Sequence record: OP114734.1
Length of the DNA: 64,000 nt
DNA from: Escherichia phage vB_ESM-pEJ01
Direction: 5' to 3' (one strand)
Positions 750 to 31,937 of this stretch are shown in pieces (position 1 is the stretch's first letter; the number at the start of each line of letters is the position of its first letter). The notes under the pieces are model-generated. The model had not been told where the DNA came from and searched no databases. It was given only the letters and a program-made list of their open reading frames with translations. A program made the translations under genes and the position numbers.

Positions 750-944
750 TTATACATTTTCAATCACCCATTGCAGATGGGCTTCTGCGTCAACCAGTTC
801 AGCGCGGCTTTTCTCTAAGCACTTGCTGTATTCTTTACGTTCCCAATCAGCAATTTCGTTTTTCAGGACTTCTTCATAGTAAGCAATTACGCCTTTCAGG
901 TCTGAAACTTTACGGCTTGCCAGTTCGATGTAATGGTTACGCAT
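750..944 (-). CDS. hypothetical protein (64 aa)
   Basis: ORF track; AAGGAGAATCAAAATG initiation region; no recognisable motif. Confidence 0.5.
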   Translation of the reverse strand: MRNHYIELASRKVSDLKGVIAYYEEVLKNEIADWERKEYSKCLEKSRAELVDAEAHLQWVIENV

Positions 945-1195
945 TTTGATTCTCCTTTGTTACTAGATAACGAATTTGGTCTTGCATTGCGATCAGTTCC
1001 CAGCGTGCTACTTTCATCATGGAAACCGACTCTTTGAACATAATATTAGCCTTTTCCTTATTCCCTGTCAAGTAGATTTCTGCAATTTTCACAAAATTTT
1101 TGAGTTTCTTCATTCTTAAACGGTTTCATATAAGTCAACCTTTTGTTTTCGATGGGGACATTATGATATATCCCCGATCCAATGTCAACAGATTT

Positions 1196-2118: not shown

Positions 2119-3942
2119 TTATGACGCCATCCATGCCTTCCTCATGTCTGAATCTTCGCTATAGAGCAAATCGAATAGCTCTTTATAGTTTTCCGGTAAC
2201 GTGATGATCTCCATGACAGGATCGTTGATCACGCGATGATAGTCTGATTCTGTGAGCGATGCTAAACCTTTGATATATCGAATGTTGTAACCTTTGATAT
2301 TATCTCGGTCGTTCTCGAAATCTTCTAGGTCATAATACCATCGAACATCATCACCTTTCTTTGGTTCAGCAATGATAATAGGTGTTTTGATAAACCGGAT
2401 TCGTCCATCTTCGAACAATTCAGGCCAACGTGCAAAGAAAGAGATCAGACTAGGTTTAATAGACCCGATCCCGTCGGTATCAGCGTCTGTCATAATCGCA
2501 ATATTTTTGTATTGCATAACTTCCAATGCATCAACACCAAATTGCAAGCCAGTGATCGCCATGATGTTAAAAATTTCGGCGTTATTAACGATCTTTGCCT
2601 CCGGTTGTTCCCACGTTGTAAGAGTTTTGCCTCGCAACGGGAAACCTCCATGTAAATCTTGATCGCGTACAGAGATCAGATAGTTGATCGCGGAATCACC
2701 TTCCGTCAAAAACAGGGTAGTTTCTGCGTCAGTTCCAATAAGGTTAGCTTTAACGTGTTTTGCCACCTTAGCCCGTTTCGCTGCCTTTGCTGCCTTAGTC
2801 GCTGCCGCTTTATCTGCTGCCTCTTTGCGTGCCAAGACTACAGCAATAATAGGCATGATAATGTTTTCTTTCTTCGCAATGACTTTAGCCAGCTTTTTAA
2901 AATCAAGATCAATATGACGCTTGATATCACCAGTCGGGTTAGTCAAGCGTTCTTTTGTCTGTGAATCAAAACGAAGGTTAGGCAATTCACGAACAATAAG
3001 AATACAGGTCAATCCAGATTTAACCGCAGCTTTAGTAACATCAACCTTATATTCTTTCTTGATTCGTTTTACAATCTCTTCACAAAGATCATCTGTCACA
3101 TAATCAACGTGTGTTCCCCCGTTTTTGGTAAACAGACCGTTAGCAAAGGATACTGATTTAAAACCTTCTCCCTCGACCGCCGGAACTAGGGCAAGTGAAA
3201 AGTTTTTATCTTCAATGACAAACGGATCATCATTGTATAGTTTAGCATAATCCTTGAACTTACTAACAATACGTTTACCATTAAACTTAAACGTGATCTT
3301 AGGAAATATTACGCTCAATGATTGCAGACGATCATGAACAATATCTAAAACAGAGTTGTCCATCATATAACCTTCGAAGTGGTCGAAGTCTGGACAAAAT
3401 GTAACCTTCGTTCCCTTCAATTTTGATGGTTTTGATGACCATGTGACATTTTCAGCACCGTTTGTGCATTGAACGGTCATTTCTGTTTCGCCGTCACAGG
3501 TCACACCAGTAAACCAATCGCTAAAGAAATTTGATAACGACGACCCAACACCGTTCATCCCTTGCGTTAATCGATTGGTATCATCAAAGTTAGACCCTGC
3601 TTTTGTTCGTGTCCATGCGGCTACAGGTTGCGGAATCTGCGTACCCTCTGGGGTAGTAACCATATGTTGAGGAATACCGCGACCATTGTCTGTTACCGTA
3701 ACAATATTGTTTTGGATATCGACGCTAATCACATTGGCAAATTCAAAGTTAGTGCGGATCGCCTCGTCTACAGAGTTGTCGATGATCTCATCAATGATTT
3801 TAACCAGTCCAGGAACGTATGAAATTTTTGTCCATTTACCGAACAGGAAACGTTGATGTTCTTCGTAAGTTGTTGATCCTATATACATTCCTGCACGCTT
3901 AAGGACATGTTCACGATCAGATAAAATGCGAAACTCACTCAT
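2119..3942 (-). CDS. 39: DNA topoisomerase II large subunit, uninterrupted (T4 gp39 plus gp60-equivalent in one 607-aa ORF)
   Basis: N-terminus MSEFRILSDREHVLKRAGMYIGS and GHKL ATPase motifs match T4 gp39; C-terminus NIAIMTDADTDGIGSI...RYIKGLASL matches T4 gp60. Confidence 0.9.
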   Translation of the reverse strand: MSEFRILSDREHVLKRAGMYIGSTTYEEHQRFLFGKWTKISYVPGLVKIIDEIIDNSVDEAIRTNFEFANVISVDIQNNIVTVTDNGRGIPQHMVTTPEGTQIPQPVAAWTRTKAGSNFDDTNRLTQGMNGVGSSLSNFFSDWFTGVTCDGETEMTVQCTNGAENVTWSSKPSKLKGTKVTFCPDFDHFEGYMMDNSVLDIVHDRLQSLSVIFPKITFKFNGKRIVSKFKDYAKLYNDDPFVIEDKNFSLALVPAVEGEGFKSVSFANGLFTKNGGTHVDYVTDDLCEEIVKRIKKEYKVDVTKAAVKSGLTCILIVRELPNLRFDSQTKERLTNPTGDIKRHIDLDFKKLAKVIAKKENIIMPIIAVVLARKEAADKAAATKAAKAAKRAKVAKHVKANLIGTDAETTLFLTEGDSAINYLISVRDQDLHGGFPLRGKTLTTWEQPEAKIVNNAEIFNIMAITGLQFGVDALEVMQYKNIAIMTDADTDGIGSIKPSLISFFARWPELFEDGRIRFIKTPIIIAEPKKGDDVRWYYDLEDFENDRDNIKGYNIRYIKGLASLTESDYHRVINDPVMEIITLPENYKELFDLLYSEDSDMRKAWMAS

Positions 3943-4041: not shown

Positions 4042-4215
4042 TCATGACACGCGCACATTTTTATCATAGTACCCGCCATTAATCCCGCGCGGGGCAGTTA
4101 ATCCCTGTTTGCATTCTTTACCACATTCAGGGCATTCTGCCTTTTCACGCTCGGAAATTTTGCGGATTTTCTGAAATTGACCGTGTTCTTCACAAGAATA
4201 ATCATATAATGGCAT
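4042..4215 (-). CDS. small zinc-ribbon protein (FmdB-like CxxC...CxxC)
   Basis: MPLYDYSCEEHGQFQKIRKISEREKAECPECGK; start moved to ATG at 4215 with AAAGGGGA SD (track ORF 4042..4296). Confidence 0.5.
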   Translation of the reverse strand: MPLYDYSCEEHGQFQKIRKISEREKAECPECGKECKQGLTAPRGINGGYYDKNVRVS

Positions 4216-4216
4216 A

Positions 4217-4885
4217 TTATCCCCTTTGTTTCTTAACTGAATTTGGATCTGGATTTTCTGGTAGGTCTTCCAGACCCATAGCATAACGTTGTGCATAGAT
4301 TAGCATAAGAATATCGCGAGCGCAATCATGAATTGCATCATGTGCGATAAAACCATCTAGCGTACCCATTGGTAACGGGCATTCACACATACCACGATGC
4401 ATCAATGTACGCTCAATGGCGGTGCGAACATCTCGGATGTTCCAGAATCGCACAGGTTCAAGATTGAACGTCTCACGGGTATTGTGTGCACGGCGGATCA
4501 TATCAACCAGTAACGGAATATCAAACGCATTACCGCGTGACCACATTACGGATTTAACCGGATCTACTCCTACAGATTCACAGAATGCGTTAAAACGCGC
4601 TAAACCTTCTTTAGTTGATACTTCCGTACCATTTGTGATTAATTGCTTTCTCATGCCTTCTGAGGCGGTATTCTTCCACCATTCAACCACACCATGATCA
4701 AACACCCTTACACCTTTCTGGGAAGGAATATCAAATTTTACCAGAAAGGAATTGTCAACCAGTTCTTTAAATGTAGGTGGGTTGTGCGGATCTTCTTTAA
4801 ATCCGATTGCCGCCATATTGATCACCGCCCCATCAGGCGGATAACCTAAACTTTCAAAGTCAATCATTAAATCCACTGGAAGCAT
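4217..4885 (-). CDS. dexA: DexA-like 3'-5' exonuclease
   Basis: 222-aa ORF in the T4 dexA position between gene 39 and dda; sequence resembles remembered DexA but was not aligned. Confidence 0.65.
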   Translation of the reverse strand: MLPVDLMIDFESLGYPPDGAVINMAAIGFKEDPHNPPTFKELVDNSFLVKFDIPSQKGVRVFDHGVVEWWKNTASEGMRKQLITNGTEVSTKEGLARFNAFCESVGVDPVKSVMWSRGNAFDIPLLVDMIRRAHNTRETFNLEPVRFWNIRDVRTAIERTLMHRGMCECPLPMGTLDGFIAHDAIHDCARDILMLIYAQRYAMGLEDLPENPDPNSVKKQRG

Positions 4886-4886
4886 T

Positions 4887-5192
4887 TTAAATATCCTCCG
4901 CTATATGCCGGAACAACTCCAGATCGTTTTTATCTAGAATGAAACCGCTACAATCAATAATCCCTTTACCGTAATTATCAGTTAACAGTCGGTCCGTTGC
5001 CATGTATGCGCGTACTTTGTTGTTAAAATTAATTACATGTTGTGCATAATCACAATGAATCTTTTGACGGTTCCACGCGACAATTGATTGTAGATGTATT
5101 ACATTAGCCACATTATTAATAACAACCATATCAAAACCCTCGCTTAGTGGAATGTTCTGGCATTTTATTGATACATTCAGCTTGGTAGTCAC
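4887..5192 (-). CDS. hypothetical protein
   Basis: ORF track (GTG start at 5192); alternative ATG at 5129 with GAGGG SD would give about 80 aa. Confidence 0.45.
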   Translation of the reverse strand: MTTKLNVSIKCQNIPLSEGFDMVVINNVANVIHLQSIVAWNRQKIHCDYAQHVINFNNKVRAYMATDRLLTDNYGKGIIDCSGFILDKNDLELFRHIAEDI

Positions 5193-5196
5193 GAGA
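5126..5196 (-). repeat. direct repeat copy 1 (about 70 bp, roughly 80 percent identical to 5302-5372)
   Basis: accatatcaaaaccctcgcttagtggaatgttctggcattttattgatacattcagc... repeated with substitutions at 5302-5372. Confidence 0.6.
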
Positions 5197-5301
5197 TTTT
5201 TTTGACGAATTAAGAGCTACAGCCAAAAATCCTGTAACTGTTCGTTTGTCATTTTTGGCTTACACCGCGTATCTAAACCCTTCGTTCTTCTAGCTTCATT
5301 A

Positions 5302-5372
5302 GCCATATCAAAAACCTCTCTTAGTGAAATGCTCGATCATTTTATTGATACATGCAGCCTCACTATCGCCGG
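5302..5372 (-). repeat. direct repeat copy 2 (partial duplicate of gene start region at 5126-5196)
   Basis: gccatatcaaaaacctctcttagtgaaatgctcgatcattttattgatacatgcagc...; retains SD plus ATG but reading frame closes after 29 codons. Confidence 0.6.
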
Positions 5373-5475
5373 ACACGTTCCAGCCGTATAGACCCCATCT
5401 AAAGCACATGGTAACAGTTCCATTGTGACGGCTTACCGTCACATCATTAAATTCTGGGATACTTCGCATAATCAT
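5308..5475 (-). CDS. small hypothetical protein (55 aa), not in ORF track
   Basis: ATG at 5473-5475 preceded by GAGGAAATTATT SD; MIMRSIPEFNDVTVSRHNGTVTMCFRWGLYGWNVSGDSEAACINKMIEHFTKRGF. Confidence 0.3.
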   Translation of the reverse strand: MIMRSIPEFNDVTVSRHNGTVTMCFRWGLYGWNVSGDSEAACINKMIEHFTKRGF

Positions 5476-5485
5476 AATAATTTCC

Positions 5486-6877
5486 TCAAATATAGTCTAC
5501 TCGATACCTCGCACGGGTAACACCCACATATAATAACTGCATTGCCAATTCAAAGTCAACATTGTCTGTACACATGCAAGGAGTATACAGGAACACGCGG
5601 TCTACGCTGATCCCTTGTGACTTATGAATGGTGCAAGCTGGTAATGCTTTTACATTCAAGAACATACGCTTCATCGTCCAGAATGAATCCCAATCTGGTT
5701 TAAATTTTGGATTCTCTTTCTTCATTTCGCGATATTGTCCGGCGACCGTATTCAGATAGATAGAGAAAATGTTCTTCTGACGTTGTTCTGTCAGAATGTT
5801 GATTTCTACTAAATCTGGTTTATCTGTAGTGATTCCGACTGCATCTAAACCTACTTTCTGATTTAGGATTTCTTTGTCTTCGTCATCATCGACGCTTTCC
5901 ACTTTCAGAGTATATCCTAAAACTGGTTGCGGATCTACCCCCGTGCAACGTAATGTAAATTCACGCGGGATGACCTCTTTAACTCGGATCATCTCACCAT
6001 TGTTAAAAATAACATTGGGAATCTTCTTCCCGCGTTCATCTCGCAGATATTCGATCAATGGTTCCTGAGTAACCAGAATTTCATCTACAATCACTGGTTC
6101 ATCGGTGTTATAAACGCGCTTACGTACAATTTCATTGAGTTTTTCGACGCTCTTGTTAGTGTAGGCCAGAATACGGTTTTCTAGAAGGTCTTCCGGCGTT
6201 TTAACGGTTTCGAAATAATGCTTCATAAACTCCGGCAGAGTTGAGCTATGGAATACACCCTCGTTGCCGCACTGCTTTTCGAATACCCATTTACCATTAC
6301 GGACAGCGGTCGCCACATCAATTATTGGCGCATTAGATCGTTTAATCTCTGTAAGTTCTACATTCTGAAACCTTTCATCGGTGAAGAAAGGAGAGATCGA
6401 CGTTGCACCGCTCGGATCAACTGGTCGTAACTGGTACAGATCACCCACGGCAATAATAACAATTCGACCGTTGATACTCTTCATGAGAATATCAAATAGT
6501 TTCTTATCGACCATACTCGCTTCATCAACAATGATGATCTGAACATCATCTAGCTTAGGAGTATCTTTTTGCTCAAATACTTGAGTATCTTCATAGTTGG
6601 TCGGGTTTAGTCGCAGTAGTGCATGTAAAGTAAATGCTTGACGACCTACCGCTTTACTCAAAACTTTTTTAGCCTGGTGGGTAGGCGTTGCCAAAACCAC
6701 ACCAGTTACACCACGACGGACCATTTCCTGAACAATGAATTTCATCATTGCGGTTTTACCAGTACCCGCCGCACCACGGACAGTTGTATGCTTCTTTTGT
6801 TCAATGCGTTTCATTAGAACATCAAAAGCATGTTTTTGCCCGTCTGTTAACATATCGAAAGTTAATACTCTGCTCAT
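5486..6877 (-). CDS. dda: Dda DNA helicase (SF1)
   Basis: Walker A GAAGTGKT; FTEIKRSNAPIIDVATAVRNGKW and C-terminal LLYVGVTRARYRV match remembered T4 Dda; GAGGA SD. Confidence 0.92.
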   Translation of the reverse strand: MSRVLTFDMLTDGQKHAFDVLMKRIEQKKHTTVRGAAGTGKTAMMKFIVQEMVRRGVTGVVLATPTHQAKKVLSKAVGRQAFTLHALLRLNPTNYEDTQVFEQKDTPKLDDVQIIIVDEASMVDKKLFDILMKSINGRIVIIAVGDLYQLRPVDPSGATSISPFFTDERFQNVELTEIKRSNAPIIDVATAVRNGKWVFEKQCGNEGVFHSSTLPEFMKHYFETVKTPEDLLENRILAYTNKSVEKLNEIVRKRVYNTDEPVIVDEILVTQEPLIEYLRDERGKKIPNVIFNNGEMIRVKEVIPREFTLRCTGVDPQPVLGYTLKVESVDDDEDKEILNQKVGLDAVGITTDKPDLVEINILTEQRQKNIFSIYLNTVAGQYREMKKENPKFKPDWDSFWTMKRMFLNVKALPACTIHKSQGISVDRVFLYTPCMCTDNVDFELAMQLLYVGVTRARYRVDYI

Positions 6878-8544: not shown

Positions 8545-8574
8545 ATAATAAAACCATGATAGAGTAGTGTCAAC
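8545..8574 (-). promoter_or_regulatory. sigma70-type promoter (-35 TTGACA rc 8569-8574; -10 TATTAT rc 8545-8550)
   Basis: Predicted start falls inside terminator hairpin 8521-8544. Confidence 0.35.
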
Positions 8575-8580
8575 TAATTT

Positions 8581-9105
8581 TTAGTAGCCTCGTTCTTGAC
8601 GGGCGAAGTTTTCAGCATTTTTCAGATAGTACAGAATAAAGAGTTCTTGAGCGTCAATACCCAGCGGGATCATCTTTGACAGAATGAAGTGGATCGCGTC
8701 CACAAATTCAAATTTCACTTCAAGCTGATCTTCCGGTGACAGTTCAGAGAATTTACGCGCTCGCGCTTCTCCGTGGTTCTTTTTCCACATTTTCCAGATT
8801 GCACTTGCATCTTTACCATTGGACATTCCACCCAGCGATGTGTAAAGCTCTCGTGTTTCGTCTGCGATAGCGTCATCCATCCGCTGCATCCAATCCAGCA
8901 TTTCACCGCAAGTCTCTAGCTTAGTTGGATTTGGGACCCAATCAAATTTTTCGGATAATGCAACCTGCAAACCAGTTTGCATTTCGAGCATCACCTGAAA
9001 CGGATCTTTACCTTCTGCAATAGCGTGATGATATGCGGCGATAGCCGCGTTAATATCTTTTTCGTTAACCAGACCAGCACAAGAATTAAATTCTGACATA
9101 TTCAC
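8581..9105 (-). CDS. 56: dCTP pyrophosphatase (dCTPase-dUTPase) gp56
   Basis: DETRELYTSLGGMS, LSPEDQLEVKFE, LYYLKNAENFARQERGY match remembered T4 gp56. Confidence 0.9.
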   Translation of the reverse strand: MNMSEFNSCAGLVNEKDINAAIAAYHHAIAEGKDPFQVMLEMQTGLQVALSEKFDWVPNPTKLETCGEMLDWMQRMDDAIADETRELYTSLGGMSNGKDASAIWKMWKKNHGEARARKFSELSPEDQLEVKFEFVDAIHFILSKMIPLGIDAQELFILYYLKNAENFARQERGY

Positions 9106-10151: not shown

Positions 10152-10355
10152 TTATAGCTCAAATTTCATGAAAGTTCCCACACTTTCATTTTCATTCTCT
10201 CCGTTTTCATCTAAGCCAAATTTGTAGACACTACCATCTGGCGATGTGTAAGAGAATACACGAAAACGGCCTACCGGATCAAGTTCTGTAAATTCATATT
10301 CTTTTCCGGCTTCAAAAAGTGAATATGTGCTTTTAAGACATTTCATCGTGATCAT
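10152..10355 (-). CDS. hypothetical protein (67 aa)
   Basis: ORF track; co-oriented; no motif. Confidence 0.45.
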   Translation of the reverse strand: MITMKCLKSTYSLFEAGKEYEFTELDPVGRFRVFSYTSPDGSVYKFGLDENGENENESVGTFMKFEL

Positions 10356-10618
10356 TTAAGCGCCACCGACAACAGAATGAGAACTACACCAACATACATT
10401 GTGATCTCGGATAACTTTTCTGTTTTTGTTTTGTGTCCAGATAATCCGAAAACAACAACACCGACAATAGCGGACAGCAAGCCAACGATAAACATGATGA
10501 TACTAAGCACCGTCTTTCTCCTTTTTGCGTTTTTCTTTACCCGATATACTAGGTCCACGATTGGTAATAGATCCGCTCGTTTCACCTGCTGCGATCTTCT
10601 CAGGATTGCCGCCAGCAT
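10352..10618 (-). CDS. small membrane protein
   Basis: Two hydrophobic segments (SIIMFIVGLLSAIVGVVVFGL; MYVGVVLILLSVAL); start codon uncertain. Confidence 0.45.
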   Translation of the reverse strand: MLAAILRRSQQVKRADLLPIVDLVYRVKKNAKRRKTVLSIIMFIVGLLSAIVGVVVFGLSGHKTKTEKLSEITMYVGVVLILLSVALK

Positions 10619-10675
10619 CGCCAGCGGTCATATCTTCTTTGAGTTTATTTTCTTCAACAAACTGTTTAAAGCCAA

Positions 10676-11050
10676 TCATAGAATAATCTCTTTCAGTAAG
10701 TCAACAATCTGGTCTTTCGTCAGTTTATCCTGATTCTCTACAATCTTGATAACACAAGCGTTAACATCTTTTCGAGTAACGCGGGAGATCGTTTTAATAC
10801 GATGAAACGGTTCGTAGAAATATACTGCTTCATTATAGAGCGCAGCAATTTTTCGACGCATTTGATCTTTATCAGCCAGAAAAACAATTGCAGTTTTCGG
10901 ATCTACACCAGCCACATCATAAAGTTCGGCGACTCCCCAGCGTCCTTCCGGTTCAACCATCCCAGCGTGTTTACCGTTAATAAAGATAAGAACGTCTCCG
11001 TTATTTGCGGTTTTAAATGCTACATCTTCCGGTGTAATCATATTTTTCAT
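10676..11050 (-). CDS. hypothetical protein (124 aa)
   Basis: ORF track; AGGAG-like SD (aaggagactatattATG). Confidence 0.5.
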   Translation of the reverse strand: MKNMITPEDVAFKTANNGDVLIFINGKHAGMVEPEGRWGVAELYDVAGVDPKTAIVFLADKDQMRRKIAALYNEAVYFYEPFHRIKTISRVTRKDVNACVIKIVENQDKLTKDQIVDLLKEIIL

Positions 11051-11080
11051 AATATAGTCTCCTTAGAGTTTCATTATAGG

Positions 11081-11716
11081 TCAAGCGAACGTAGAAAGCA
11101 AATGTTTTGTTTCTTTCAGTTGTCTTTCAAGATCTTTGCGTTTCTCTTTAAGTTGCATTTTAGCATTATTTCGCTCTCTTGAAACCTCTCTATCAATGCT
11201 CTTAGTCCAATTATCAATATCAGAATAAGTTGGCATACCCAATTCTAAGCCTAATGCGGTTGGATACAGGGTAACAGTCCATAAACCGCTAATCTTCTTA
11301 AATAGGTCGGGGTGTAGTGTACTATCTACATCTTCCGGTGTCAACTCTTTTTCTTCTTTCAGTGGTGGGATCTCGTCATATGGTTCCAGTGCATTTACTT
11401 TAATATCAGATACCTCATCAAAGAATCCGCGTACATCCGCAGGAAATACACAAGCAATTTCCCAACCGTGGTCACGCAGAGAAGTAATATTTTTCACTCC
11501 CCCACCATGTGTGATGATTGATGTGACATTGCCATCAAGGTCCACCGAATTTACGAGAAATGGCTTATCGTCTGTCAGATCATTATAAAACTGTGCTTCG
11601 GCTGTAGTCATCTCCAGAAACAGATCTCGGATCGGACGACCATCAGGTGCGTTACCTTCCTTGAGAGTATAAAAACGACTTACGATCCATTTTGGCGGTA
11701 AAGCATTAGCGATCAT
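11081..11716 (-). CDS. hypothetical protein (211 aa), basic coiled-coil C-terminus
   Basis: ORF track; no confident motif. Confidence 0.5.
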   Translation of the reverse strand: MIANALPPKWIVSRFYTLKEGNAPDGRPIRDLFLEMTTAEAQFYNDLTDDKPFLVNSVDLDGNVTSIITHGGGVKNITSLRDHGWEIACVFPADVRGFFDEVSDIKVNALEPYDEIPPLKEEKELTPEDVDSTLHPDLFKKISGLWTVTLYPTALGLELGMPTYSDIDNWTKSIDREVSRERNNAKMQLKEKRKDLERQLKETKHLLSTFA

Positions 11717-13493: not shown

Positions 13494-13534
13494 AATATAA
13501 TCCTCTCAGTCAAAATATCATTTTACTACTTTAA

Positions 13535-14311
13535 TTATTCTATGTCAACAAATTTCCAATTTGGAAAGTCTGGACTCATACAACGACGCCGAACGGTTCC
13601 GCGCTCGTTTCCTAGTACCTTAGATACTTCCGATACAGATTTATAAATCACACCATCAACAAATACAGCCTTTCGGTCTTTCCTGTTTTGGTTTTTGCTC
13701 TTTTCTCTTCTGGCTTCTACGTTATCCGAATCATTCCATTGTCTCTTTGCTGTCTCTCTGGAAGATATTGCCTTTTGTTCTTTAACAATATCTTTAACGA
13801 GTTGTTCTTGTCCTGTTATCTTCGCCCACACATTAACAGACTGGATAGCATTAGCCTCACTCATTCCCCAGCGTTTGCCGGATATATTCTTACGACGCAC
13901 GCGTAGAAATTCGTTAAAGACTTCTTCGCATTGGTGCATATAATCACGAAATCCATATTTCTTAGCCCATGCCTCTTTAATTGCATCAGACATATTTTCG
14001 GCAATACGTCTACGCATCCATGCATACTCCTTATTATTGCGACCGTGACTGGTCATGCACATCATACGCGAAGCCATAATAAGACCCACATGTTTAGGAT
14101 ACATTTTAGCTAAAAGTAGATGTGCTGTAAAGTGTTCCTCTGGAGTCAATGGAACGAGATTTTCGTGGTCATCGGTTCCACCCATACAACGTGGTTTAAC
14201 GTGATGGATCTCTACATATCCGGTCGGCTTCTCGCGGGTTCTTGCTCGTTCAATCAATTTTTTGTAATGTGCTTTGTAGTTCATGTGATCCTCCATATGA
14301 AAAAGGGGCAT
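13535..14311 (-). CDS. HNH homing endonuclease
   Basis: HNH motif GYVEIHHVKPRCMGGTDDHENLVPLTPEEH; basic C-terminal putative DNA-binding region; inserted between gene-40-position ORF and uvsX. Confidence 0.75.
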   Translation of the reverse strand: MPLFHMEDHMNYKAHYKKLIERARTREKPTGYVEIHHVKPRCMGGTDDHENLVPLTPEEHFTAHLLLAKMYPKHVGLIMASRMMCMTSHGRNNKEYAWMRRRIAENMSDAIKEAWAKKYGFRDYMHQCEEVFNEFLRVRRKNISGKRWGMSEANAIQSVNVWAKITGQEQLVKDIVKEQKAISSRETAKRQWNDSDNVEARREKSKNQNRKDRKAVFVDGVIYKSVSEVSKVLGNERGTVRRRCMSPDFPNWKFVDIE

Positions 14312-15667: not shown

Positions 15668-18346
15668 TTAAATGTCAAACAGGTCCGTAAGCGATGCCAC
15701 CTTTTCATATTGCAGCTTTGCAGCCGTGGTAATGTTCTCCAGTGGTTTGACGAAAGTCTTATTAAACAACAAAGGCCAGTCCAACCACTTCAACACCTCT
15801 GATTCAATTTCTGGAGGAATACGAGTACCAGACAACCAACCAAAACAGATTTCTCCAAACGGATTTCGATCTTTAAGCGGTACAATCATAACCTTCTCGC
15901 CTTCACGAATCGGATCTAGTCCGAATTTTCGAGCATTACGATTATAACACAATACACTCTTAACCGCATACGGACAACCCTTAATCGGATACCCGTTTGA
16001 ATCGCTGTATTTCTGTAGGTTGTTTGCAGATGATACCGCAGCAACATCAAGATAGTCAAGTTTTCTAAATTCTTGCTCAAAAATACCGTAGTATTCCTGC
16101 AATGACTCTTCACCTTCCTGCAACATACGGCGAATACATTCTTTCAGTGATTTCTGACATGCTTTAGGGGTGGAGCTACGTTGCGTTTCCAAGCCCATGA
16201 TTTTTAGCTTAGGTTCAGCAAAGCGCGTTCCTTCCATATCCCAAACATTAAGAGCATAACGCTTTTTGCCAGTCCAGAATCCACCGATACCCGCAGATTT
16301 CAACGGAGGACCAGCAATTGCCTCACGGTCCATAAACATCAAGTGCTCATAGTTGTTCATGTACTCGCATAACTCGCGATATCCCTTGTCGATAATAGGT
16401 TCCATTCGATGTTTACCGAAATTATCAAGGAAGTCAACAAGTTTTTCGGTATCGTCGAAACGATCTTCCCCGCCAACCTTATCAACAACATTGTTAACCA
16501 GCACATAAACGGAGTCAGTATCACAATAACGAACATATGCAAAATCGGTTGTTCCGCAAAGCTCGTTTAAGTATTCGTTAATCTTACGCTCAATCCACTG
16601 AATTGCAAGCTGACCGAACAGTGTGATCGCACTAGCGTTACGGAGATCATAAAAACGGAATTTAGGATTCCCCAACGCACCATAAAGTGAGTTGATCAAA
16701 ACTTTTCGAGAAAGCTGGTTTGTATTGCACAAGATCGACTCGTCTTTACATTCTTCCAGCAATTTCTCTAAGGTATCTTTGCTTAATTCAGAAAGCATCG
16801 ATTTAAACGCTTCATCGAAGTCGTGACGCACTTCAACGCTATAGCTAATGGTTCCCCCATAAACATGATTTTCATCGTGTAGAATCGCTTTACATAGTTC
16901 AGCATTGCGATCACATGCCAACATCATGTTTTTGTACTGCTTACGCTGATCGAATACCTTTTTAATCTCAATCGGTACGATACCATGAATATCTTTTCTA
17001 TACATCCATCCGTTAGGCGAGCAAGAATACTCATCACTCGGACGTGGTGCAGTTTTATTGATATACTCGTGCATCGGTGCAGCATCAAAAGATCCAGCGA
17101 TTGTTTCAGGAGAAATATTAACCTGTCGAATAATAGATGGGTACAGACTTGTTAAGTCAAAGCTCATCATCCAACGGTAAGCATTTGGCACAGGTTCTTT
17201 TACAAATGCGCCTGGATACGTCTGCTTAGGCTGTATCTTATTTTCCGGTACTACTTTACCCTCAGCTTTCAGAGATCCGAAGATAATAGCATCCCATACT
17301 TTCATCGGGTTATAAACATGGTTAAATTTAATCTTTGCATAGAAACATAGACTATACACAAGATCGATAAATCCACGCTTTTTATCAATCGCCAGCACAC
17401 GATCAACGTCGCCGATGTTATAATCGATGTAAAGTTGATGGTTGTCATCACGCAATTTCTTTAACGGACCATCATAATCAACCTTACCGATTCCTGTCTC
17501 ATATTCAGCAACATAATCTAACGCATATGTTGGTTGAGTCGTAAAGCTAAATTTCTTGTACAGGTCAATATAATCAAGGCTTTCGATCCCCATGATCGTA
17601 AATGCTTCACGCTCGTTGCCAAAATCATCCTGTGAGATTCTGGATTTAATCTTACCGCACGGGCTTAGACGGTTAGCGGTTCTACTTCCGAACTTATTAC
17701 TGATACGTTTAATGATATATGGAATATCGAATGTTTCTGTGTTCCAGCCAGTGAAACCAACGGGTCGGTTTTCCTCAAAGAATCGGATGTATTCTAACAG
17801 CAATTCATCTTCTGTGTCATAGACGTTATAAACAACGCGCTCTACAATATCAGGTCGAAGAATAGACTTGCTTGCTTCCCAGATTTCACCGTTTTTTCCT
17901 TTCAAATCAAATACAAAGAAACGATCATGTACGGAATCATAATGCGTAATTGCATCGATAGGATATTTCGCTTCTTCTGGTTTAGGAAATTCTGGGGCAG
18001 TGACCTCAATATCAACCCATGCTACACGGATTTTATTTCGGTCATATCGAATCTCGCCTTTATACGTATCAGACAGATAGGAGATGATAAAATCATCCAT
18101 CCCTAGTGCCTCCTGCCCCATTTCTCCCATCTTTTTACGCCATTTGTTGGCCTCGTTCATAGATGGGAATTTTTTAGCAATGCAAGGCTTGCCATAGATA
18201 TCTTTATAATTCGTAACCATACCAGGCGCGGCATGATGAAATAATGTTGGCGTATATTCAACGTAACGCTCTTGTTCTTGTCCAGCATCATCAATATAAC
18301 GCTCGTAGATCTTATCACCTACTCGCTCACATGACAGAAAATACAT
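15668..18346 (-). CDS. 43: DNA polymerase gp43 (family B)
   Basis: Colinear with remembered T4 gp43 (YGKPC, SFDLTSLYPSIIRQVNISPET, YCDTDS); start set to ATG at 18344-18346 with AAGGAG SD (track starts at upstream GTG 18376). Confidence 0.95.
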   Translation of the reverse strand: MYFLSCERVGDKIYERYIDDAGQEQERYVEYTPTLFHHAAPGMVTNYKDIYGKPCIAKKFPSMNEANKWRKKMGEMGQEALGMDDFIISYLSDTYKGEIRYDRNKIRVAWVDIEVTAPEFPKPEEAKYPIDAITHYDSVHDRFFVFDLKGKNGEIWEASKSILRPDIVERVVYNVYDTEDELLLEYIRFFEENRPVGFTGWNTETFDIPYIIKRISNKFGSRTANRLSPCGKIKSRISQDDFGNEREAFTIMGIESLDYIDLYKKFSFTTQPTYALDYVAEYETGIGKVDYDGPLKKLRDDNHQLYIDYNIGDVDRVLAIDKKRGFIDLVYSLCFYAKIKFNHVYNPMKVWDAIIFGSLKAEGKVVPENKIQPKQTYPGAFVKEPVPNAYRWMMSFDLTSLYPSIIRQVNISPETIAGSFDAAPMHEYINKTAPRPSDEYSCSPNGWMYRKDIHGIVPIEIKKVFDQRKQYKNMMLACDRNAELCKAILHDENHVYGGTISYSVEVRHDFDEAFKSMLSELSKDTLEKLLEECKDESILCNTNQLSRKVLINSLYGALGNPKFRFYDLRNASAITLFGQLAIQWIERKINEYLNELCGTTDFAYVRYCDTDSVYVLVNNVVDKVGGEDRFDDTEKLVDFLDNFGKHRMEPIIDKGYRELCEYMNNYEHLMFMDREAIAGPPLKSAGIGGFWTGKKRYALNVWDMEGTRFAEPKLKIMGLETQRSSTPKACQKSLKECIRRMLQEGEESLQEYYGIFEQEFRKLDYLDVAAVSSANNLQKYSDSNGYPIKGCPYAVKSVLCYNRNARKFGLDPIREGEKVMIVPLKDRNPFGEICFGWLSGTRIPPEIESEVLKWLDWPLLFNKTFVKPLENITTAAKLQYEKVASLTDLFDI

Positions 18347-31399: not shown

Positions 31400-31927
31400 T
31401 CATCTCTCATTTTTGATACGTGATTCTAATTGGATCATACGGTCGCGCGTTTGTTTGTATTCTCGGATAGCACCGATCCGGCTAGGCATACCATCCAGTA
31501 CGCTCTTAATACCTTCTAGGGTAGTAATTTTGGCAATGCTATTATGTAACCCCATCTTATCGATCAACTGAATGTCGTAGGCTTCCATAAGCAGACCCAG
31601 ACGTTCTAAAGTTAGGTCTTCTTCTTTTTCTTTCGATTCTGGAATCTTAGGTTCAATAGTAACTTCGGTAAAGAAACGACGCTCACCAGCCCAAAACCAC
31701 ACACCATAACAATTGATAGAAGATTCTTTTAACGTCATCGGCTCGGTATCTTCACCGATAATGGTAATTTCACTAACATCACCATCAGCATCAAGTGCTT
31801 CTACCTTAAACGAACGACCGTTCAACAGGTCAATAATCATACTGTTAATGGATGACGAAAATTTAGTCAGTTCAGCTTTTGATATTTCACACTTAATGTT
31901 GTAGATCTTACCTACTTCCCATTCCAT
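31400..31927 (-). CDS. modular paralog family member
   Basis: MEWEVGKIYNIK...FKVEALD...RRFFTEV; start set to ATG 31927 (GAGGTGA SD). Confidence 0.55.
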   Translation of the reverse strand: MEWEVGKIYNIKCEISKAELTKFSSSINSMIIDLLNGRSFKVEALDADGDVSEITIIGEDTEPMTLKESSINCYGVWFWAGERRFFTEVTIEPKIPESKEKEEDLTLERLGLLMEAYDIQLIDKMGLHNSIAKITTLEGIKSVLDGMPSRIGAIREYKQTRDRMIQLESRIKNER

Positions 31928-31937
31928 AATAATCACC

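Follow-up and report, generated by a model that had tools for sequence, protein, structure and literature searches.

ORFan009.1, a small gene of T4-type coliphages, very probably constitutes an excisable cassette of 177 nt bounded by direct repeats, and the copy found in the 64,000-nucleotide stretch of phage DNA that we analyzed (the window) is frameshifted. The cassette lies between direct repeats of about 56 nt, each formed by a shared gene end and a stop/SD/ATG junction. In the scheme that we favor, recombination or replication slippage between the two copies would remove it, and the removal would be clean because the repeats share both a reading frame and a stop-start junction: ORF010, possibly with a chimeric C-terminus, would still be correctly placed before ORF009. 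Re-acquisition would be expected to occur via ordinary homologous recombination during co-infection. In the window, the cassette is present and would have been inactivated through the loss of one T from a T6 run by Streisinger-type slippage, leading to a stop after 29 codons.

Genomic setting of the locus

The 801 nt surrounding the repeat match 58 phage records at 92–98.6% identity, all of them Krischvirus (the RB49/Phi1/JSE/GEC-3S group of T4-type coliphages), and none of the 58 is identical to the window over this region. Judged by these matches, the source of the window is a Krischvirus of the RB49/Phi1/JSE group. The genes of interest are on the minus strand and run, from high to low coordinate, in the order dda, ORF010 homolog, ORFan009.1 homolog, ORF009 homolog and dexA, with topoisomerase gp39 (2119–3942) further along; the three small genes between dda and dexA are early genes and lie close-packed. 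The upstream neighbor (5486–6877), a 463-aa reading frame, is the DNA helicase gene dda, with Dda helicase annotated in Phi1, JSE and RB49; the downstream neighbor (4217–4885) is dexA, the exonuclease A gene, which is annotated in relatives. The homologs of ORF010 (5308–5475; 55 aa) and ORF009 (4887–5129; 80 aa) are intact and match phrog_16162 (E = 4.5e-44) and phrog_15021 (E = 1.1e-56), respectively. The true start of the ORF009 homolog is the ATG at 5129, since the equivalent ATG is used in every annotated relative that we fetched (a 243-nt CDS in all); the GTG at 5192 is merely the mechanical upstream limit of the open reading frame 4887–5192.

Several other features of the window emerged from the comparison with relatives. 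A mechanically called 84-aa reading frame (4042–4296, minus strand) overlaps the end of dexA; in relatives, the 174-nt gp39.2 gene (zinc-ribbon/FmdB-like) begins 1 nt after dexA, and the true start of the window frame is probably an internal ATG (MPLYDYSCEEHG…). The segment at ~8573–9077 is not collinear with positions 10218–11624 of G37-3 (L019), which is ~900 nt longer at an HNH endonuclease gene (10275–11204), and in this alignment the window appears to lack the homing-endonuclease-type insert that G37-3 has near this place. A further ~790 nt (13507–14295), just downstream of the recombinase (uvsX-like) gene, were unaligned in BLAST and have almost no counterpart in G37-3 (L019 ~16057–16061); this site may represent a further insertion/deletion polymorphism. 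Scanning IMG/VR with a 16-mer returned 104 hits, almost all unrelated, among which three Krischvirus contigs proved useful.

A direct repeat formed by two gene ends

The core of the repeat is gapless: positions 5126–5181 (copy B) and 5303–5358 (copy A), both read on the minus strand, are identical at 48 of 56 sites (86%), with a start-to-start spacing of 177 nt. A previous sequence-only reading had described about 70 bp repeated some 176 bp upstream at roughly 80% identity, and this repeat is real, although its period is 177 nt and identity over the ~70 nt falls to 53/70 (76%). Within the 800-nt region, the highest-scoring local repeat reaches 32, whereas 100 shuffles averaged 9.3 and never exceeded 12, and a degenerate 51-nt pattern of the repeat has exactly two matches in the 64-kb window when none is expected. 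On the coding strand, the pattern common to both copies reads ...TGTATCAATAAAATG nnn GAn CAT TnC ACT AAG nGA GGn TTT TGA T ATG G.

Each copy therefore consists of the final ~17 codons of one gene (...CINKM.EH.TKRGF*), closed by its TGA, and, after a single spacer base, the ATG(G) of the gene that follows. The SD (GAGG) is embedded in the last codons of the upstream gene, and GAGG-N7-ATG closes both copies, such that only the SD and ATGG (~15 nt) belong to the start of a downstream gene and most of the repeat is a 3' coding end common to two genes. Copy A forms the 3' terminus of the 55-aa ORF010 homolog (…AACINKMIEHFTKRGF), with its TGA at 5308–5310, followed by the ATGG of the next gene; copy B is, in the same frame, the 3' end of ORFan009.1 (…AECINKMPEHSTKRGF), with its TGA at 5131–5133, followed by the ATGG of ORF009. 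The reading frame of copy B is represented in the mechanical ORF list by a 31-aa ORF that opens with TTG (5131–5226).

This arrangement bears on the earlier proposal that a partial tandem duplication of the start of gene 4887–5192 left a truncated paralog upstream. In the repeat, an SD and ATGG do stand before the 29-codon ORF as well as before the ORF009 homolog, as such a duplication would have it. However, beyond the ATGG the two downstream sequences are unrelated; the repeat reaches upstream into coding sequence that is common, in frame, to ORF010 and ORFan009.1; the intact 58-aa gene of relatives belongs to phrog_37371 and not to phrog_15021; and the downstream gene really starts at ATG 5129. 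What had been taken for the SD and start of 4887–5192 is thus, for the most part, the coding end of the gene upstream, and we find a duplicated gene start scarcely credible. The 55-aa ORF, which had been viewed as an out-of-frame read-through of the repeat, does exist, but it is a conserved gene whose own 3' end is copy A. Also rejected was the idea that ORFan009.1 is a paralog of ORF009: the two have only the ATGG and the upstream SD in common and fall into phrog_37371 and phrog_15021, respectively.

Whole-gene tandem duplication of ORF010 and ORFan009.1 was considered as well. Upstream of the repeat, 13 of 16 positions match at the same offset, which had looked suggestive of such an event, but the N-terminal parts are no more similar than shuffled sequences, either as DNA (p = 0.14) or as protein (p = 0.18–0.82 across three frames), and no frame of ORF010 resembles ORFan009.1, which led us to reject this origin, including a version with divergence by frameshift. 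The two genes belong to separate PHROG families (phrog_16162 and phrog_37371) that cross-hit over the last 21 residues only. As judged by these comparisons, they are not whole-gene duplicates, and their common part is limited to the repeat-encoded C-terminus. The start of ORFan009.1 (ATATGGCTAATG) matches an internal site in ORF009 (ATGTGGCTAATG) over 12 nt, but we discarded this as a microhomology for illegitimate recombination, chance alone being estimated to yield about 0.7 such matches in an 800-nt region.

Both proteins are genus-restricted ORFans, with ORF010 represented by eight clusters and ORFan009.1 by three among 5.8 billion proteins. The AlphaFold model of ORF010 (pLDDT 78) is a four-strand beta-meander with a C-terminal helix at residues 39–53, and that of ORFan009.1 consists of three helices at low confidence (pLDDT 63). 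An exhaustive HMMER search recovered, beyond variants of ORFan009.1, just internally repetitive proteins that score through the sum of weak repeats; one of these matches has an HTH-like repeat unit, which we take as a hint only. Foldseek found no match in the PDB with E<0.4, Pfam yielded only sub-threshold noise, and the PHROG families of these small genes are unannotated.

A single-base frameshift in ORFan009.1

Phi1 (in which the gene is named ORF009.1), G37-3 and others have an annotated, intact 177-nt gene encoding 58 aa that fits exactly between copies A and B. The Phi1 product matches phrog_37371 over residues 1–58 (E = 2.9e-46). The position of the gene between ORF010 and ORF009 is the same in the window and in relatives. 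Aligned to Phi1 and G37-3, the window homolog occupies 5131–5306 (minus strand) and measures 176 nt, as opposed to 177 nt (58 aa plus stop) in the intact form. The window cassette differs by one base from the intact G37-3 allele: a run that is T6 on the coding strand in all intact relatives is T5 at 5225–5229, and the remainder is 100% identical to the alleles of G37-3, Delraymugoa and FL38. The frameshift converts …QDFLAVAL… into …QDFWL*, with a premature TAG at 5217–5219 after 29 codons. An A7 run at 5197–5203 and an A4 run at 5163–5166 (within copy B; AATAAAATG) are of normal length in the window.

The 29-codon ORF, reported earlier as retaining an SD and ATG, is indeed present (5217–5306); it forms one half of a broken gene, of which the 31-aa ORF is the other half. 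Its truncation is due to the loss of one base from the T6 run and not to an incomplete duplication. The earlier reading had suggested looking for an intact second gene in relatives, and Phi1, G37-3, GEC-3S, kvi and others do carry the intact 58-aa gene. With a one-unit homopolymer change relative to intact orthologs and a premature stop, the window allele has the hallmarks of a slipped-strand frameshift pseudogene; the description of a decaying small gene was accurate in that respect, but the gene is a distinct ORFan and not a paralog derived from the start of 4887–5192.

We consider the T5 allele to be probably a real mutation. If it were instead a sequencing or assembly error, the phage would carry an intact ORFan009.1 and nothing would be decaying in the window genome. 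Such an error would involve a single homopolymer base in a cassette otherwise identical to those of three other phages, and the T5 allele was found in no second assembly, the closest cassettes having T6 or T7; a scan of JGI metagenomes for the T-run context gave 0 hits. On the other hand, over the ~48 kb compared with G37-3, only three isolated indels of a length not divisible by three occur inside annotated CDSs, and ORFan009.1 is the sole gene that is clearly broken in the window, with no large core gene affected, from which we conclude that the window assembly is not generally error-prone at homopolymers. Moreover, ORFan009.1 has many independent lesions, some of them common to several isolates or runs (three Makalu phages, T7 in two assemblies, and an A5 allele passed from a 011D4-like phage to PHB13), making real mutation at these runs plausible. 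Taken together, these observations render an artifact unlikely, if far from negligible.

The two other apparently frame-breaking indels relative to G37-3 (at ~31623 and ~1086) were evaluated as window defects, and neither is one. At 31400–31936 (minus strand) the window has an intact 178-aa ORF, which in G37-3 (L019 33170–33704) is split into 125-aa and ~63-aa frames by a 2-nt difference in a TCTTCT/T-run, G37-3 being the broken or mis-sequenced side. Near 1086, in the ORF at 937–1113 (minus strand), a T-run is 2 nt shorter than in G37-3 and results in a different start: the N-terminus reads MKKLKNFVKIAEIY… in the window and MKPFKNEETQKFCEKIAEIY… in G37-3, with the remaining protein the same.

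A different interpretation of the T-run is that it is a site of programmed recoding or phase variation, at which the T5 allele still gives full-length protein through ribosomal or transcriptional slippage, or expression is switched on and off adaptively. The occurrence of T5, T6 and T7 alleles in otherwise identical cassettes, and the existence of a compensated A6+A5 double frameshift that restores the native C-terminus and stop, would accord with such a role. Set against these are the plain, in-frame T6 that forms the majority state, the distribution of lesions among three runs and one stop codon (which is what decay would produce), the sequence GAT TTT TGG, which is no canonical X XXY YYZ heptamer, and our failure to find a stimulatory structure; in addition, a T5 run is short for efficient transcriptional slippage. 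We therefore view recoding or phase variation as very improbable.

Recurrent inactivation and probable weak constraint

Among the cassettes examined, ORFan009.1 has at least eight different lesions, seven of which are situated at three homopolymer runs, and all of those given here were confirmed at the DNA level. In the T6 run, one T is missing from the window and one is added (T7) in two separate, independent Logan assemblies/runs. The A7 run is expanded to A8 in ECD7 and contracted to A6 in Makalu001–003. The A4 run of AATAAAATG is A5 in 011D4 (and in PHB13) and A3 in L130, a 169-kb ENA scaffold. L133 and L134 (Logan SRR25667334 and SRR25667326) combine A7→A6 with A4→A5 40 nt downstream, so that 13 residues are rewritten and the native C-terminal 10 residues and TGA are back in place. 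The remaining lesion, in L135, is a stop-loss (TGA→TGT). The A6+A5 allele may hint that termination next to the start of ORF009 is under selection. Translation of ORF009 in the window presumably continues from the SD that belongs to it.

The gene is intact in nine named isolates, eight of them verified at the DNA level (Phi1, G37-3, Delraymugoa, FL38, Skers, GEC-3S, kvi and PTE-Eco09) and the ninth, Aragogtheria, assigned from a 99.5% match of identical length. With indels repaired, pN/pS based on few substitutions is 0.46 for ORFan009.1 (0.32 in its unique part), as compared to 0.20–0.24 for ORF010, 0.17–0.18 for ORF009 and 0.05 for dexA; though the counts are small, these ratios would fit a real coding gene under weak constraint. 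Because the gene has been inactivated independently and recurrently, its product is presumably dispensable or conditionally costly.

Gain and loss of the cassette

The 177-nt cassette occurs in 17 records (14 named phages) of the phage collection and is precisely absent from ~41; JSE and RB49, e.g., are without precisely the ORFan009.1 unit. In neighbor-joining (NJ) trees of the 705-nt upstream flank and of the 804-nt downstream flank, the long and short haplotypes are interleaved, the long/short pairs being ECD7/MIZ6, kvi/W115, window/Whisky, 011D4/PHB13, Phi1/G2248 and GEC-3S/IMGVR_45988. Both states are found within the species 'Krischvirus RB49', in which RB49 and PHB13 are short and kvi and 011D4 are long. 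This interleaving indicates that the state of the cassette has changed many times.

Empty sites correspond to occupied sites minus one repeat period, with chimeric junctions in PHB13 and Whisky. The region from ORF010 to ORF009 in PHB13 equals that of 011D4 minus exactly 178 nt, and the upstream flanks of the two phages are identical at 599 of 600 sites. The breakpoint lies within AAGCTG at nt 115–121 of ORF010, i.e., at the 5' edge of the repeat, and PHB13 (MK573636, L128 826–981) inherited the A5 insertion of the 011D4 copy B (AATAAAATG → AATAAAAATG), which now frameshifts the C-terminus of its ORF010 (annotated as 156 nt instead of 168). As a comparison of parent and derivative sequences, this shows that the PHB13 short haplotype arose by repeat-mediated excision. 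In Whisky, the junction is of copy-A type save for the last diagnostic base, which is that of copy B, placing the crossover at nt 149–161 with one mismatch, and its short haplotype probably also arose by deletion. Relative to long haplotypes, JSE, G2248 and MIZ6 lack exactly one unit, and their crossovers fall in the last 8–21 nt.

In JSE, RB49, MIZ6 and most other short haplotypes, the junction is purely of copy-A type, a pattern that fits either a late crossover, in those last 8–21 nt, or an ancestral empty site, and consequently loss is proven only for PHB13. The copies have also exchanged sequence in the Makalu phages, to judge from their bases: copies A and B are identical at 55 of 56 sites, as opposed to 48–51 of 56 in most genomes, and copy B has acquired copy-A-specific bases, which indicates gene conversion. 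As to its enzymology, excision would proceed by phage homologous recombination or by slippage.

The pure copy-A junctions would also be expected if the short haplotype were ancestral and ORFan009.1 had been gained, for example as a foreign segment of ~121 nt together with a duplicated 56-nt end of ORF010, and then spread by recombination. Lateral spread via homologous recombination can interleave the trees too, and the unique part of the gene has no detectable homolog elsewhere. Against this stand PHB13 and, probably, Whisky, which were derived by deletion, and the divergence of the unique part, which in the ENA scaffold is 79% identical to that of the window, with indels, when its flanks are 92–96% identical. 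This excess divergence implies that the cassette is old within the genus and not a recent duplication. We regard a gain of this kind as a tenable possibility, less favored than the alternative; it concerns the origin of the gene and is compatible with the excisable cassette as an account of present-day dynamics.

Relation to known systems of gene shuffling and mutation

The presence or absence of this cassette has already been published, and the repeat mechanism is a modest addition. In what Arbiol et al. (2010; PMC2839356) say of gene content, ORFan009.1 is among seven Phi1 genes that are absent from RB49 and is itself placed outside hyperplastic regions, and most differences between Phi1 and RB49 are put down to recombination between PeSLs (promoter-early stem-loop cassettes), i.e., intergenic cassettes of a promoter and a stem-loop that end in an SD and ATG. 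Their statements on ORFan009.1 mention no repeat around it. The repeats described here might themselves be PeSLs, in that they flank a differentially present ORFan and end in an SD and ATG as PeSLs are described to do (PMC2839356). However, neither 5126–5181 nor 5303–5358 contains a sigma-70-like promoter or terminator-like site on the coding strand, and neither copy folds better than its shuffles (z = -1.0 and +0.5). Furthermore, the repeat is coding, with an intergenic gap of 1 nt, whereas a PeSL is an intergenic element of ~100 nt, and the gene is placed outside hyperplastic regions by the account in PMC2839356. Of the features that characterize PeSLs, then, the terminal SD and start and the flanking of a differential ORFan are found here, but the intergenic position over ~100 bp, the strong sigma-70-like -35/-10 promoter preceded by AT-rich sequence, and the stable stem-loop serving as terminator or attenuator are not, and we deem it highly improbable that these repeats are PeSLs.

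Still, the likeness to PeSL shuffling (PMC2839356; Comeau et al. 2014, PMC4122927) is clear: it occurs in the same genus, an ORFan sits between two repeats of ~50–100 nt and is excised or inserted through recombination between them, and one chimeric copy is left behind. As with PeSLs, the repeat ends in an SD and start codon, by which the expression signals of the downstream gene are preserved. Unlike PeSLs, this repeat is a 3' coding end plus a stop-start junction, without promoter or stem-loop; being coding, it demands in-frame excision, which is what is observed, and the C-terminus of the encoded protein becomes chimeric. In its position outside the hyperplastic regions, the locus also differs from PeSLs, and the predicted excised circle would be only 177 nt.

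Spontaneous deletions between short direct repeats, as in rII and the gene 39–56/dda region, are classical in T4; work by Mosig et al. in 1998 is said to form part of this deletion literature. Those deletions resemble the present case in that non-essential early genes are lost, the endpoints fall in short repeats, and the general neighborhood near dda is the same. They differ in being laboratory events, often larger and between fortuitous repeats, whereas here a conserved 56-nt gene-end module is involved and the event recurs in natural isolates. Our literature search for T4 repeat-mediated deletions turned up nothing specific.

Slipped-strand frameshifting of the Streisinger type has its classical hot spots in homopolymer runs of the T4 rII and lysozyme genes. 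The lesions of ORFan009.1 are comparable in that a change of ±1 in A or T runs inactivates the gene and a second-site frameshift restores the frame (A6+A5); but the Streisinger cases were selected laboratory mutants, and those reported here are fixed differences among natural isolates and assemblies. The locus also recalls the tandem paralogous small early genes of T4-type phages, being composed of adjacent small ORFs with common sequence that would be translationally coupled. In contrast to such paralogs, ORF010 and ORFan009.1 are similar only over the last ~20 codons, and beyond these the predicted folds differ (a beta-meander vs. three helices, the latter a low-confidence model).

Implications

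The present results call for three corrections to the annotation of this region: the start of the downstream gene, the ORF009 homolog, lies at 5129; the 29-codon ORF is what is left of the beginning of ORFan009.1; and the 55-aa ORF is to be counted as a genuine gene that is conserved. In other respects the locus is a case of routine phage micro-evolution, caught unusually clearly.

A broader and rather doubtful proposition is that the ~56-nt module of gene end and stop/SD/start represents a second type of shuffling cassette in T4-type phages, acting at the level of translation and distinct from PeSLs, and that the unusually frequent loss of ORFan009.1, through several deletions and at least eight lesion alleles, reflects selection as opposed to neutrality. 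If this were true, a small ORF could be inserted or removed in frame while the translational coupling of its neighbors is kept, and selection might arise if, for example, the ORFan009.1 product were useful on some hosts and triggered host defence on others. Its recurrent, independent inactivation makes ORFan009.1 a reasonable candidate for inclusion in screens of phage genes that interact with host defences.

At this locus, the gain and loss of small accessory genes by T4-type phages, outside of hyperplastic regions and without PeSLs, can be seen cleanly in nature. With 011D4 and PHB13, it offers an exact pair of parent and derivative, and it shows that excision can carry the lesion of a lost gene into its neighbor.
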